Positions 23,944 to 28,378 are shown, counted from the first letter of the stretch. The stretch: DNA of 32,000 bases from Candidatus Saccharimonadota bacterium (GCA_030429505.1 JAUIFI010000001.1:240001-272000); one strand, 5' to 3'. Notes: generated by a model not told the origin, from the letters alone. Made by a program: numbers and translations.

Positions 23944-24624
23944 TTGAAGCTTATCTCATGGGATACGTGGGAAGGGGAGTTGGAGAATCCGCAGTCTCTG
24001 AATCGGTACAGTTATGTGCTGAATAATCCGTTGAAGTATACTGATCCGAGTGGGAATTTTATTGATACGGTTTGGGATCTAGCGAATACGTTGTATGATG
24101 CTGGAAAGATTATTGGATCAGCCTCTGCTTATGCAGTAGGCAGTTTTACAGGGAATGATTTGGTAAAAGAATTTGCTTTAGAAGGATTAAAACAATCTCT
24201 TACGGATGCTTCCGTAGATGTTGGAGCAGCTTTGATACCTGGCTTGCCTGCAGGAGGGAGTAAAGTAGGTCGACGACTTGAGAAATATGGAGATGAGGCG
24301 GTTGATGTTGTAAAGAGCACAAGGAATAAAGTTAATGAAATATTTTCAACTTTAAAACAATCAAAAGTTGAAAGATTTAAAACAACAGAATATTTAGGGA
24401 AATATAAAAAAATAACTGAAATAAAACCTGGGAAGGAAGCTGGTCAAAGCCGAGCAGAATATATAAGGTATAAAAATACTGAAACGGGAAGAACTGTTAA
24501 TTCTTATAAAGATTCTTATAGTAAGGGAAATAAATTTGAAGGGCGTGATCCAACCAGAGGTGGTCCTAGTGGCAGACCTAAAGATGATCATTCTGGTAAC
24601 AAAAGTAGTTTTAGAAAAAAATGA
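23944..24624 (+). CDS. Orphan RHS C-terminal cassette 1 (3' core fragment plus a 188-aa distinct toxin domain; no ATG start)
   Basis: The open frame begins ..ISWDTWEGELENPQSLNRYSYVLNNPLKYTDPSGN (DPSGN at 24043-24057), then diverges completely. Only a TTG is available as a start, so it likely needs recombination into the main gene. Confidence 0.75.
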   Translation: MKLISWDTWEGELENPQSLNRYSYVLNNPLKYTDPSGNFIDTVWDLANTLYDAGKIIGSASAYAVGSFTGNDLVKEFALEGLKQSLTDASVDVGAALIPGLPAGGSKVGRRLEKYGDEAVDVVKSTRNKVNEIFSTLKQSKVERFKTTEYLGKYKKITEIKPGKEAGQSRAEYIRYKNTETGRTVNSYKDSYSKGNKFEGRDPTRGGPSGRPKDDHSGNKSSFRKK

Positions 24625-25034
24625 TAGTAAGAAAACTATTGGAAACGTTAGAAGACTCCTCTAATAATTTTGAAGACTTTAAAAAAGAAATTTCTGAAGA
24701 AATTTTTAAATTTAAAGAATTAAAAAAGAAGAAAGGTTCTAGTCGTCCGATATATTTATCGGACTATGAGAATTTAACTTTAACAAAAAAACATTGTATC
24801 AAGCTATGTACATTATATTTAAGTCGATTGATTACTTCGAGCGAAATTGATTATATTGTTTCAGGCTTATGTTTATTAAATTTTCGAGAAGAATTGATAT
24901 TTGAAGGAGGGGAAAGATTATTTGATATAATAGAGGAGTTATCTGATCCTGATGTAAACGGAGAACTAACAAAAGAGCGTGTTGAGTTTGTTCTAAACCA
25001 ATTAGAAAAACTTAAAAAAGACTCTAAAAAATAA
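24621..25034 (+). CDS. Immunity-like acidic protein (paralog A), ATGA-overlapped with orphan 1
   Basis: 137 aa. The C-terminal IIEELSDPDVNGELTKERVEFVLNQLEKLKK parallels the next gene. Confidence 0.6.
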   Translation: MIVRKLLETLEDSSNNFEDFKKEISEEIFKFKELKKKKGSSRPIYLSDYENLTLTKKHCIKLCTLYLSRLITSSEIDYIVSGLCLLNFREELIFEGGERLFDIIEELSDPDVNGELTKERVEFVLNQLEKLKKDSKK

Positions 25035-25039
25035 AGTAA

Positions 25040-25387
25040 ATGAATGCAGCAAAAGAACGTATTTCATTATTAAATTGTCTTTTAAGCTATAATACGAAGA
25101 TAACGGATTTAGAGTCCTCATTGGCTAAATTTAGATGGGATTCAGAAGAGTTAGTTAAGCTAGAAAATAAGCATCTCAAAAATATTCTAAATCGTTATAT
25201 TAACGGAACATTGAGTCTAAATGAAATAGAGGATTGGGCGAATGCAATAGAATGTAGAGACGATATAGACTATTCTTCTTTTATTGAAATAATACATGAG
25301 TTAGCTAATCCTCTTTTGCATTCAGAATTAACTGAATTTAGAGCTAGGGAAATTTTGAATTTATTAAGAACGAAAAAGGAGATATAA
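25040..25387 (+). CDS. Immunity-like acidic protein (paralog B)
   Basis: 115 aa. IIHELANPLLHSELTEFRAREILNLLRTKK aligns with the C-terminus of 24621-25034. The gap between the two genes is 5 nt. Confidence 0.6.
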   Translation: MNAAKERISLLNCLLSYNTKITDLESSLAKFRWDSEELVKLENKHLKNILNRYINGTLSLNEIEDWANAIECRDDIDYSSFIEIIHELANPLLHSELTEFRAREILNLLRTKKEI

Positions 25388-25915: not shown

Positions 25916-26410
25916 ATGAAAAATATAATTAAAGCTCTTTTGGGTAATTTTTTTATTTTTTTACTGCTTTATACAGTAATTTTTGTTCCTTTATTGAATT
26001 GTCCTGATCCAGATGTATTTACTCCAATATCCCCAGAAAGAGGCTTGTGTTGGAATGTGTTTAATATTAGTGATTTTATAAATTTATTAGGGCTTTCTTT
26101 TTTGTTTTCGACTTTTTTCGCTTTGGTGCTTTCTCTCTTTCTTTCTCTGGCTTCTTTTATAAGCAAGACTAATTATTCACTCCTTAAAATTCCTATTTAT
26201 TTTTTAGTGCCTTTACTTTTTATCTCAATCATTTTTACATTTTTAATAGCTAATATTCCCATTTTTGAAGTAATCGGGTCAAAACTAGATTTTATGTATT
26301 ATGATGAAATATTTTGGATTATCTTTGGAAGTTTTTTTAATATTATTTTTATAGAATTGTATTACAAAGTACCTTGGAAAAAGGTTTTTAGGAATGATAC
26401 AGTTATTTGA
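25916..26410 (+). CDS. Polytopic membrane protein, immunity-like (paralog 1; C-terminus ELYYKVPWKKVF)
   Basis: 164 aa with about 4 TM segments. It shares a CPDP/CDPP N-terminal loop and the C-terminal ELYYKVPWKKVF with 27419-27880. Its 3' end overlaps the orphan-2 start by 17 nt. Confidence 0.65.
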   Translation: MKNIIKALLGNFFIFLLLYTVIFVPLLNCPDPDVFTPISPERGLCWNVFNISDFINLLGLSFLFSTFFALVLSLFLSLASFISKTNYSLLKIPIYFLVPLLFISIIFTFLIANIPIFEVIGSKLDFMYYDEIFWIIFGSFFNIIFIELYYKVPWKKVFRNDTVI

Positions 26411-27422
26411 TAGGGACATGCAGACGTCAGGACAGAGTACGAGTCCTTTGGGAGTGGGGAAGAGTACGGCGGAGATGAAGATGAAAAACACCTTCCAAAA
26501 TTGGGATTTTGCGGATACGTGGGAGATGGAGGAAAATGTAAGTTATCCGATGTTGCAGGTGGAAAATAGTGGAGGAGGGAGTTGTACGGGAGAACCGACA
26601 TTGGTGTATCATCATGAAGATCACTTGACTGGAAGCAATGTCGACACCGACGAATCGGGAGCCTTGAACCAAGTCCTAGACTATTATGCGTTTGGGGCGA
26701 CGAGGATTGACGAGCAATACGGAAACTTCAACAACGATTATAAGTTCACAGGGAAGGAGAAGGATGCAGAGACGGGGTTGTATTACTATGGGGCGAGGTA
26801 TTATGACTCTGAGCTTGGACGGTTTATAAGTAGAGATACGTGGGAGGGGGAGTTGGAGAATCCGCAGAGTTTGAACAGGTACTCATATGTGCTGAATAAT
26901 CCGTTGAAGTATGTGGATCCGAGTGGGAATAGAGTGGAACTGGTAACAAGGCAGATGGATTATAAGTCCATGCCTACACAAACCTTTATACAAAATATAA
27001 AGAGATTTTTTGCTCAATTTGGAAATCACAGTTTTGTAAGAACTATACCAGATAATCCTAGTGATTTTGGAGGAGTAGAAAAAATGACACTAGGTGCTGG
27101 TCAGGACAAAGGTGGTATACTTGCTAAAGGTTATAACAATCCAAATGATTTTGACCCAAAGACAAAAATAAAAGAAATTAATGTTATACAAACACCAAAA
27201 GGAATGACTGATTCAGAACACATTGGTAGAATATTGGGCACGTTTGCTACGGAACTTATTCGTGGTTCAGGAGGAAGTTTGGACAATATAAAAAATTCTT
27301 TTGGAATTGATCTAGGACTTGACTCTGGAGGATTGCAAGGAGGAAAAATTATTGAACAAAACTTGCAAACTCCAAATAAAAATGATGAAAATGATAAAGA
27401 TTCTAAATCTTCTAGAAAATGA
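26394..27422 (+). CDS. Orphan RHS C-terminal cassette 2 (GLUG tail, complete RHS core 3' half, and a 163-aa distinct Cys-free toxin domain)
   Basis: 342 aa with its own ATG (MIQLFDRDMQTSGQ...). It is colinear with main-gene 22169-22686 up to DPSGN (26916-26930) and then unique. Confidence 0.8.
   Translation: MIQLFDRDMQTSGQSTSPLGVGKSTAEMKMKNTFQNWDFADTWEMEENVSYPMLQVENSGGGSCTGEPTLVYHHEDHLTGSNVDTDESGALNQVLDYYAFGATRIDEQYGNFNNDYKFTGKEKDAETGLYYYGARYYDSELGRFISRDTWEGELENPQSLNRYSYVLNNPLKYVDPSGNRVELVTRQMDYKSMPTQTFIQNIKRFFAQFGNHSFVRTIPDNPSDFGGVEKMTLGAGQDKGGILAKGYNNPNDFDPKTKIKEINVIQTPKGMTDSEHIGRILGTFATELIRGSGGSLDNIKNSFGIDLGLDSGGLQGGKIIEQNLQTPNKNDENDKDSKSSRK
26413..26930 (+). repeat. 518-bp homology block in orphan 2
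   Basis: Aligns without indels to 22169-22686. Positions 26526-26698 are identical to 22282-22454 (173 bp, checked base by base). Confidence 0.9.
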
Positions 27423-27880
27423 AAAAATTTTTTAAATCTTTTTTAATTAATTGGTTATATTTTACAGTTATTGTGGGAGTTTCTATGACCTTTCCTCCAT
27501 GTGATCCCCCTGAGGGATACGTGACTTTTACTTTTTGTAGTAATAGCATAATTGATAATTTAATCACAAATTTGGTTCTTTCTTTCTTTCTTTCTTTCTT
27601 TCTTTCTTTTCTTTTATCTATTTATTCTTTCTTAAGAAAACAAAATTTTTGTTTTTTTAATATGAATATAGTTTATGTTCTGTTTGTTTTGCTTATAAGC
27701 GTATTTTCATTTTCATCAGAAAACAATCCTCAAAATGTTCTTCTGAACTATTTAGAGAATTATTTTTCAGTAGGAACTATAATTTATAATTTAAGTTTCA
27801 TATTGCTTATGTTGACACCGTATATAATCCTCATGGAATTGTATTACAAAGTGCCTTGGAAAAAGGTTTTTATGAAATGA
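27419..27880 (+). CDS. Polytopic membrane protein, candidate immunity for the orphan-2 toxin (paralog 2)
   Basis: 153 aa. It has an ATGA overlap with the orphan-2 stop and a C-terminal ELYYKVPWKKVFMK. It contains the (TTCT)8 tract, which encodes LSFFLSFFLSF. Confidence 0.65.
   Translation: MKKFFKSFLINWLYFTVIVGVSMTFPPCDPPEGYVTFTFCSNSIIDNLITNLVLSFFLSFFLSFLLSIYSFLRKQNFCFFNMNIVYVLFVLLISVFSFSSENNPQNVLLNYLENYFSVGTIIYNLSFILLMLTPYIILMELYYKVPWKKVFMK
27576..27607 (+). repeat. (TTCT)8 tetranucleotide microsatellite inside a CDS
   Basis: Eight perfect tandem TTCT units were counted from 27576 to 27607. The paralog 25916-26410 has no such tract at the equivalent position. Confidence 0.9.
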
Positions 27881-28378
27881 TACAGTTATTTGATAGAGAC
27901 ATGCAGACATCAGGACAGAGTACGAGTCCTTTGGGCGTGGGGAAGAGTACGGTGGAGATGAAGATGAAAAACACCTTCCAAAATTGGGACTTTGTGGATA
28001 CGTGGGAGATAGAGGAAAATGTAAGTTATCCGATGTTGCAGGTGGAAAGCACTTCAAGTTGTGCAGGTGGATCAATCATCATTTACCACCATGAGGATCA
28101 TCTAACTGGGAGTAATGTGGATACGGATGAGGCGGGGAATCTGAATCAGGTCTTGGATTATTATGCGTACGGATCAACCCGAATCGACGAACAGTTTGGA
28201 TCGTTCAGTAACGACTATAAGTTTACAGGGAAGGAGAAGGATGCGGAGACGGGATTGTATTACTATGGAGCGAGGTATTATGACTCTGAGCTTGCTTGGG
28301 CGGTTTATCTCACGGGATACTTGGGAGAGTATTTTATCGGACGGAAATAACGCTATTCGATTCGTAAAAAAACTATAA
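27877..28378 (+). pseudogene. Orphan RHS cassette 3, truncated and frameshifted (5' half only, no toxin domain)
   Basis: MIQLFDRDMQTSGQ...YYGARYYDSEL is followed by a GCTT tandem duplication (28290-28297) that shifts the frame. The restored frame reads GRFISRDTWE, then the unrelated SILSDGNNAIRFVKKL and a stop. Its ATG overlaps the upstream stop (ATGA). Confidence 0.8.

Follow-up and report, generated by a model that had tools for sequence, protein, structure and literature searches.

Organisation of the RHS locus

The window analysed here is a 32,000-nt stretch (positions 240001-272000) of the single-contig genome of a Candidatus Saccharimonadota bacterium (GCA_030429505.1, JAUIFI010000001.1). 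It contains a full-length RHS/YD-repeat toxin gene followed by an array of three incomplete copies of its Rhs-associated core, here called orphans 1 to 3. The genome comprises 1,023,206 bp with 38.7% GC and an estimated completeness of 94.7%, and carries a second, distant RHS gene (40% identity) about 560 kb away. The host is presumably a Candidate Phyla Radiation (CPR)/Patescibacteria-type organism; many in-frame TGA codons occurred in matches from lineages of its class. Its genus consists of this genome alone, and its family and order hold the same 43 genomes. Coordinates are counted from the first letter of the window. The locus contains the following genes and open reading frames (ORFs):

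17503-23238 (+): main full-length RHS/YD-repeat toxin gene, 1911 aa, with SpvB, TcdB mid-N, RHS repeats, GLUG, Rhs-associated core and toxin tip CT_M
23231-23623 (+): small ORF overlapping the rhs stop, immunity candidate by position
23626-23928 (+): small ORF for a membrane protein (imm_M2), immunity candidate by position
23944-24624 (+): orphan 1, the last 37 core codons (ISWDTWEGELENP...DPSGN) followed by toxin tip CT1
24621-25034 and 25040-25387 (+): two tandem paralogous immunity candidates for CT1, by ORF overlap and layout
25481-25900 (+): small membrane-anchored ORF with a homologue in the related genome G031
25916-26410 (+): immTM_a, polytopic membrane immunity-like gene whose 3' end continues directly into the core start of orphan 2
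26394-27422 (+): orphan 2, 172 core codons from DMQTSGQ, followed by toxin tip CT2
27419-27880 (+): immTM_b, immunity candidate for CT2, with an ATGA overlap with orphan 2
27877-28327 (+; ORF 27856/27877-28350): orphan 3, a pseudogene with the core 5' part only (DMQTSGQ...GRFISRDTWE)
28327-28765: AT-rich non-coding right flank

The main gene matched the Pfam families RHS_repeat (2e-23), SpvB (2e-19), TcdB_toxin_midN (3.6e-8) and GLUG. Its core was recognised by TIGR03696 (Rhs_assc_core) at positions 22168-22686 (2.7e-23; 82.3 bits, cut-off 32.5). Position 17503 is the start of the longest ORF, and a signal-peptide-like start (MRKILSLL) lies at 17578. The core 3' end reads ...NNPLKYTDPTGN, a DPxG-type ending. 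Three different tips (CT_M, CT1 and CT2) follow such an ending, each with a small overlapping downstream ORF. None of the three was matched to a known toxin family in profile searches; no Pfam match was obtained for 23231-23623 or imm_M2, and no family match for the CT1 immunity candidates (24621-25034, 25040-25387). The toxin and immunity roles are predictions from sequence. With an RHS/core gene, varied tips and 5'-truncated core fragments, the locus is a Rhs/YD-repeat polymorphic toxin locus with an orphan tip array, and a further example of the known main-plus-orphan type of Rhs locus.

Unit structure of the array

Orphans 2 and 3 resembled each other beyond their cores. The region 26340-26846 was 81% identical to 27822-28327 over 512 nt, which includes the sequence upstream of both orphans. 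They share the same 5' truncation point (DMQTSGQ), at which the 3' end of a membrane immunity-like gene abuts the core, and this junction itself is a repeat (26340-26394 versus 27822-27876, 87% identity). The two genes concerned, immTM_a and immTM_b, are paralogues with 34% amino acid identity. The homologous immTM-core junctions thus define the array unit as core, tip, immunity gene(s) and immTM.

Similar cassettes were found in related genomes. In the array of G031, one tip shares 51% identity with CT2, and the ORF that occupies the immunity position behind it encodes a polytopic membrane protein. A homologue of 25481-25900 occupies the immunity position after the main toxin of G031 (tblastn, 34% identity over 115 aa, E = 7e-19, L040 6102-6446), so that this ORF more likely belongs to an immunity-type gene family. 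The N-terminal part of CT1 was 42% identical to an orphan in the relative G016; the best non-self CT1 homologue was 40% identical, and no close homologue of CT1 was found. Judged from these similarities, such cassettes circulate within the family and appear to be exchanged across genera.

Core fragments with unusual ends were also present in relatives. G050:C4 held a lone core fragment cut at both ends and stopping at GARY. In G128 and G016, short-core orphans begin near q124-125; that of G016 is interrupted by approximately 105 nt inserted after GARYY. A breakpoint hot spot was considered in a survey of 401 genomes of the class and rejected; real short-core orphans at q124-137 occurred in three genomes (G128, G016 and the present one), which is too few. 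Apparent 3' ends at q144 in G237 and G080 were variable-length loops after DP rather than truncations, and several apparent 5' core truncations were contig ends.

A 22-bp repeat at the two outer breakpoints

In a four-way alignment of the cores, the homology of orphan 1 began sharply at 23951 (the 10 nt upstream matched at only 2 of 10 positions), and that of orphan 3 ended at 28326-28327. A preliminary description of this DNA had reported that a 22-bp sequence is present at both breakpoints, that orphan 1 holds only the 3' part of the core, and that orphans 1 and 3 encode a serine with TCA where the main gene and orphan 2 use AGT. All three statements held in the alignments. With up to three mismatches allowed, TTATCTCAYGGGATACKTGGGA matched the window only at the two breakpoints, and shuffled sequences gave no match. 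The two copies, at a distance of 4354 bp, have 20/22 positions in common, a resemblance far beyond chance. The versions of this patch in the four cores, and a duplication close to the last of them, are:

22580-22601 (+): main gene, TTATTAGTCGTGACACGTGGGA, Ser = AGT; Ile-Ser-Arg-Asp-Thr as ATT AGT CGT GAC ACG
23951-23972 (+): orphan 1, left repeat copy, TTATCTCATGGGATACGTGGGA, where core homology starts; ATC TCA TGG GAT ACG at the same five codons
26824-26845 (+): orphan 2, TTATAAGTAGAGATACGTGGGA; ATA AGT AGA GAT ACG
28305-28326 (+): orphan 3, right repeat copy, TTATCTCACGGGATACTTGGGA, where core homology stops; ATC TCA CGG GAT ACT
28291-28298 (+): CTTG-CTTG, a frameshifting 4-nt tandem duplication in orphan 3, a short distance upstream of its patch copy

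Outside the pair formed by orphans 1 and 3, patch identity was 15/22 (orphan 1 and main, orphan 3 and main, orphan 3 and orphan 2), 16/22 (orphan 1 and orphan 2) or 18/22 (main and orphan 2). The differences between the patch classes are all synonymous except CGG>TGG (R>W) in orphan 1, and the two repeat copies each show a single change of their own (C>T in orphan 1, G>T in orphan 3).

The homology of orphan 3 does end at ISRDTWE, as previously described, but this motif is no longer in frame after the CTTG duplication. The frame from the orphan 3 ATG (27877) reads ...YYDSELAWAVYLTGYLGEYFIGRK and then a stop (also rendered as ...SELAWAVYLTGYLGEYFIGRK, again ending in a stop), and GRFISRDTWE occurs only in the +1 frame, which stops at 28376-28378. 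Because of the 4-nt duplication, orphan 3 joined to orphan 1 would be out of frame, and the proposal that recombination between the repeats would yield an intact hybrid cassette does not hold for the sequence as it stands.

Both outer junctions were present in independent data. Logan contigs of run ERR3428548 were 100% identical to 22425-26500, from imm_M2 into orphan 1, and to 28019-32000, from orphan 3 into the right flank, and neither junction is therefore peculiar to this assembly. The same contigs are present in a second sample. An assembly artefact, in which a separate circular molecule or a mis-joined repeat was threaded into the chromosome, had to be considered since the array is rich in repeats of 100-500 nt and the Logan contigs break inside these (at 22425, 26500 and 28019). 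Neither of the two contigs found covers 26500-28019, and no record matches the immTM_b product exactly. Against this, the 22-mers are non-identical and so cannot be a k-mer overlap left by a circular contig. The contigs led us to reject an artefact for the two outer junctions, and for the array as a whole we consider it extremely improbable.

The right edge of the block contained no tRNA or Rfam RNA, and the idea of a tRNA or non-coding RNA integration site was dropped. Homology between the right tail (28327-28770) and the array was not above that of shuffled controls.

Relationships among the core copies

Relative to the main gene, core identity was 90% over 479 nt for orphan 2, 87-91% over 47-96 nt for orphan 1 and 79% over 403 nt for orphan 3. 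The identities varied strongly between segments:

Segment A (main 22170-22319): main and orphan 2, 94%; orphan 3 with main 93%, with orphan 2 95%
Segment B (main 22320-22479): main and orphan 2, 96%; orphan 3 with main 68%, with orphan 2 65%
Segment C (main 22480-22568): main and orphan 2, 81%; orphan 3 with main 79%, with orphan 2 89%
Segment D (86 nt past the patch): main and orphan 2, 71%; orphan 1 with main 72%, with orphan 2 85%

Orphan 3 was nearest to orphan 2 in segment C and orphan 1 was nearest to orphan 2 in segment D, with the main gene as the outlier both times. This pattern supports the assignment of orphans 1 and 3 to the same core lineage. It is predicted equally by two halves of one cassette and by two paralogues of one resident core class. 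Of the earlier claim that the orphans are the halves of a single cassette, the complementary truncations, the 22-23 bp overlap and the common lineage stand, but nothing shows that one event split them.

A tract of 173 nt is wholly identical between the main gene (22282-22454) and orphan 2 (26526-26698), surrounded by sequence of 90-96% identity. Together with the mosaic of identities, this indicates past, recent gene conversion between the two genes. Recombination at this tract would exchange CT_M for CT2 and free a circle of 4244 bp. The independent Logan contigs break at 22425 and 26500, about where this tract stands. The last approximately 50 nt of the main core (YTVNNPLKYTDPTGN) are unlike those of orphans 1 and 2 (YVLNNPLKY.DPSGN), and the core end would therefore have travelled with the present main tip.

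The serine codon of the patch was TCN in G019, the closest related core (TCT, RDTW), and in all three cores of G031 (TCG), and AGY in G032, G017 and G016. TCN and AGY thus appear as allele classes among the cores of the host's bacterial family. The TCA state had been put forward as a variant private to orphans 1 and 3; its occurrence within a TCN class shared with related genera removes that status and therefore weakens the case that a single molecule is needed to explain it. The TCA variant itself was not found in other Rhs genes of the two public collections scanned. A pattern scan of JGI metagenomes gave two matches, which were unrelated, and a degenerate TCN plus DTWEG pattern in GTDB genomes gave four, all in an unrelated protein family.

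Probable remnants of an immTM-type gene at the left junction

The flank immediately before orphan 1 (23884-23951, +) contains two segments that match the immTM genes within their first 40 nt, each at 15/16 positions. Positions 23884-23899 match 27443-27458 (immTM_b nt 25-40), and 23936-23951 match 25921-25936 (immTM_a nt 6-21). Between them, the 9-10-mer (T)AAAGCTCTT at 23926-23935, also written TAAAGCTCTT, matches 25930-25939 (immTM_a nt 15-24). Elsewhere in the genome, the two 16-mers had just one and two matches with at most one mismatch. Among 3000 random 70-nt queries compared with their own downstream 5 kb, at least two such matches occurred with P = 0.001.

These pieces constitute moderate evidence for remnants of an immTM-type gene start, which would fit a local deletion in situ. 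Since two immTM 5' remnants stand beside orphan 1, a third unit with an immTM-core junction probably once stood where orphan 1 now begins. Orphan 1 has a TTG as its sole possible start, right behind two in-frame stops. The order of the immTM pieces at 23884-23951 is reversed, as might result from nested deletions or serial template switching, and imm_M2 may have borrowed its last codons (LLIHWLL) from an immTM start.

Origin of the array

The observed anatomy, segment-wise relationships, flank remnants and frameshift can be accommodated by an array of three tandem units that decayed independently. The locus would be an ordinary main-plus-orphan array of C-terminal-displacement type, observed after its decay. 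We favour this account and give it an even chance. Truncated core relics in relatives and the TCN codons of related genera also speak for it. The orphan part would have been built from three tandem units, each immTM directly joined to the next core. A first, illegitimate deletion of approximately 0.9 kb would have run from near the start of an immTM-type gene into the core of the first unit, leaving orphan 1 with just 37 core codons and immTM 5' remnants immediately upstream. A second deletion, likewise illegitimate, would have removed everything beyond ...ISRDTWE of the last unit, leaving orphan 3, which would later have gained its frameshifting 4-nt duplication. Orphans 1 and 3 would have the ATC-TCA-YGG patch in common by descent from a resident TCN-serine core lineage. 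The 3' core end of the main gene would have come with its current toxin tip, and gene conversion would have homogenised part of orphan 2 with the main gene. That the breakpoints overlap by 22 bp would be a positional coincidence.

The size of this coincidence can be estimated. For uniform, independent breakpoints in a 521-nt fragment, an overlap of 0-25 nt has a chance of 4.8%, and an absolute distance of at most 25 nt a chance of 9.6%. In a large scan from which features are selected by eye, a coincidence of 5-10% cannot be neglected.

Several points weigh against independent decay. The positional coincidence of 5-10% and the shared patch would both follow from a single event by itself, and independence requires accepting the two together. 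The matches to the immTM genes cover only 16, 16 and 10 nt and are not collinear, running from nt 25-40 over nt 15-24 to nt 6-21; a single clean deletion is therefore too simple for the left junction. An intact array of three units, as postulated for the ancestor, was present in no related genome, and the array end in G031 lacks a terminal 3'-truncated core. Since the G031 array is complete, its lack of such a fragment also led us to discard the idea of a terminal landing pad.

The principal alternative is a circular permutation. A two-unit circle or tandem copy, with an intact unit X carrying CT1 and orphan 2 carrying CT2, would have been cut at the 22-bp site in the core of X and inserted between imm_M2 and the right flank. 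X would thus survive as orphans 1 and 3, one half each, and the attL/attR-like 22-mers could recombine to set the circle free again. In favour of this model, the truncations complement each other exactly and overlap by 22-23 bp (20/22), and the patch is closest between these two orphans. Read as a circle, the block is regular in structure, since its closing junction, immTM_b to the core at DMQ, is homologous to that between immTM_a and orphan 2. Circles of a core fragment, tip and immunity gene have been proposed for rhs tip displacement (PMC2935791), and the absence of the TCA variant from the other Rhs genes scanned also agrees with one molecule of origin.

Random linear fragments of a tandem or rolling-circle donor have unrelated ends, whereas a staggered 22-nt cut or a site-specific recombinase would yield the overlap at no extra cost. 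No recombinase was recognisable here, the ORFs from 23231 to 27880 being without a Pfam match, and the 22-mer, read by eye, showed no inverted repeat, arm symmetry or dif-like structure. For a staggered 22-nt cut with fill-in, no enzyme is known here. A circle that integrates by homology would duplicate the homology available at the target, and a 22-bp overlap would require a target already holding a 22-bp core relic cut on both sides, which amounts to two deletions, plus a very inefficient crossover over 22 bp. Moreover, the repeat copies are mismatched at 2 of 22 positions, and the cassette formed by joining them carries a frameshift as the sequence stands. The model does not predict the immTM 5' remnants beside orphan 1, and no assembled contig connects imm_M2 with the right flank, each flank gene being on one contig only. 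We therefore regard a circular permutation as rather doubtful. That the 4354-bp block is one turn of a recombinase-less circular two-cassette element, integrated via a core site of approximately 22 bp, appears unlikely. The integration of a circular intermediate and the mobility of the block, as suggested in the preliminary description, are left without support by the lack of a recognisable recombinase, the imperfect repeats, the frameshifted join and the left-junction remnants.

A duplication or unequal-crossover junction had been offered as another origin. Unequal crossing-over would leave intact hybrid cores and one novel junction; instead, there are two novel junctions (23950/23951 and 28326/28327) and both flanking core copies are truncated, and we rejected this origin.

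A third account separates the two junctions: the left one would result from tip displacement by incoming DNA and the right one from an unrelated loss. CT_M, imm_M and imm_M2 would have arrived along with the 3' end of a class-I core, and homology to the resident core would have anchored the incoming DNA on its left. The right end would have been joined illegitimately at the resident ISWDTWE, or the junction between imm_M2 and core(a) would have come ready-made on a circle of the type proposed by Jackson et al. Orphan 1 would be the old tip of the main gene, and orphan 3 an older resident core of the same lineage, truncated separately. The last approximately 50 nt of the main core, which would have come with the present tip, fit this account, as do the published displacement model (PMC2935791) and the cross-genus cassettes (CT2 with immTM and the 25481 family in G031, a CT1-like tip in G016). 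However, it needs the same positional coincidence as independent decay, no donor was found, and displacement alone leaves the immTM 5' remnants between imm_M2 and orphan 1 unexplained. We consider it improbable.

Homology-based single-event models are not simpler than independent decay, because every one of them needs the same two deletions. On grounds of parsimony, independent decay of a three-unit array is somewhat more likely than a single split event.

Comparison with known Rhs arrays and integrated elements

In Enterobacteriaceae, rhs cores and C-terminal tips are evolutionarily decoupled, and tip displacement was proposed to proceed by excision of a circle and its insertion by homologous recombination, although the evidence for the circular intermediate in the 2009 paper was circumstantial only (PMC2935791). 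As in those arrays, a full-length rhs gene is followed here by 5'-truncated cores fused to differing tips and immunity genes. The present array differs in its setting in a CPR-like genome of 1 Mb, and in the Sec-type leader and SpvB/TcdB-like N-terminal domains of the main gene. Its last core is 3'-truncated, with a breakpoint that shares 22 bp with the 5' breakpoint of orphan 1, and its long core fragments are welded to the 3' ends of membrane immunity-like genes.

For the rhs locus of Salmonella Typhimurium LT2, in which main and orphan cores share 522 bp at 95%, duplication followed by recombination was proposed (Koskiniemi et al. 2014, PMC3967940). Here too the homology between main and orphan core (479 bp at 90%, with the 173-bp identical tract) would permit tip switching. 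The LT2 system has long homology and intact hybrid genes, and differs from this locus in lacking complementary truncated fragments and a 22-bp junction.

In Campbell-type integration, an element is bracketed by short att direct repeats, and recombination between these releases a circle and leaves one repeat behind. The present locus likewise shows a discrete block between short direct repeats. In contrast to such elements, it has no recognisable integrase or other recombinase and no known empty site, its imperfect repeats lie inside a coding repeat family, and the cargo consists of toxin and immunity genes only.

If orphans 1 and 3 did derive from one cassette by one cut, the locus would retain a trace of the circular intermediate that rhs tip exchange has been proposed to involve, and provide evidence at the sequence level for the episomal rhs-tip circles postulated by Jackson et al. 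Such circles would then insert at a minimal core remnant via very short homology and seed arrays away from a full-length core. As it stands, the locus is a well-resolved case of a Rhs orphan array in a minimal CPR-type genome, built from units and decaying by small deletions. It also cautions that complementary breakpoints and a shared synonymous allele are by themselves not proof of a single rearrangement.

Additional observations

Two paralogous small secreted proteins (16590-17072 and 17096-17569, 34% identity) are encoded directly upstream of the main RHS gene. They have LNTGSGW/F...YKCV...GDCA motifs in common and no family match, and may be accessory or chaperone-like partners of the toxin.

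The gene immTM_b holds a (TTCT)8 tract at 27576-27607. Its exact 153-aa product was absent from the record in assemblies that reproduce the adjoining stretches at 100%, which would fit tract-length variation or merely a contig break.

Downstream of the array, the 10-mer CGGAATAACG has only two copies in the 1.02-Mb genome (28711-28720 and 29098-29107), which form an inverted pair around the ORF 28766-29092 (108 aa; no Pfam, NCBIfam or PHROG match). A copy longer by one base, CGGAAATAACG, is unique in the genome and lies at 28342-28352, 16 nt past the break of orphan 3. These sites may serve a small DNA-binding protein as operators or mark the termini of a small element.

In G016:C32 (L039, 1443-1747), the core of the CT1-like orphan is broken after ...GMYYYGARYY by approximately 105 nt of GCGAAG-rich sequence and resumes at YDPVLSRFVSRDTWEGE. 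A few bases are repeated at both edges of this insertion, which concerns the same core region. The main gene of G031 (L040, G031:C1, 3385-5997) encodes only 870 aa and lacks the RHS shell. Its N-terminal part, subtilisin-protease-like by eye, is joined to approximately 110 residues of Rhs core end and a tip, which would make it an unusual carrier for Rhs-type tips.

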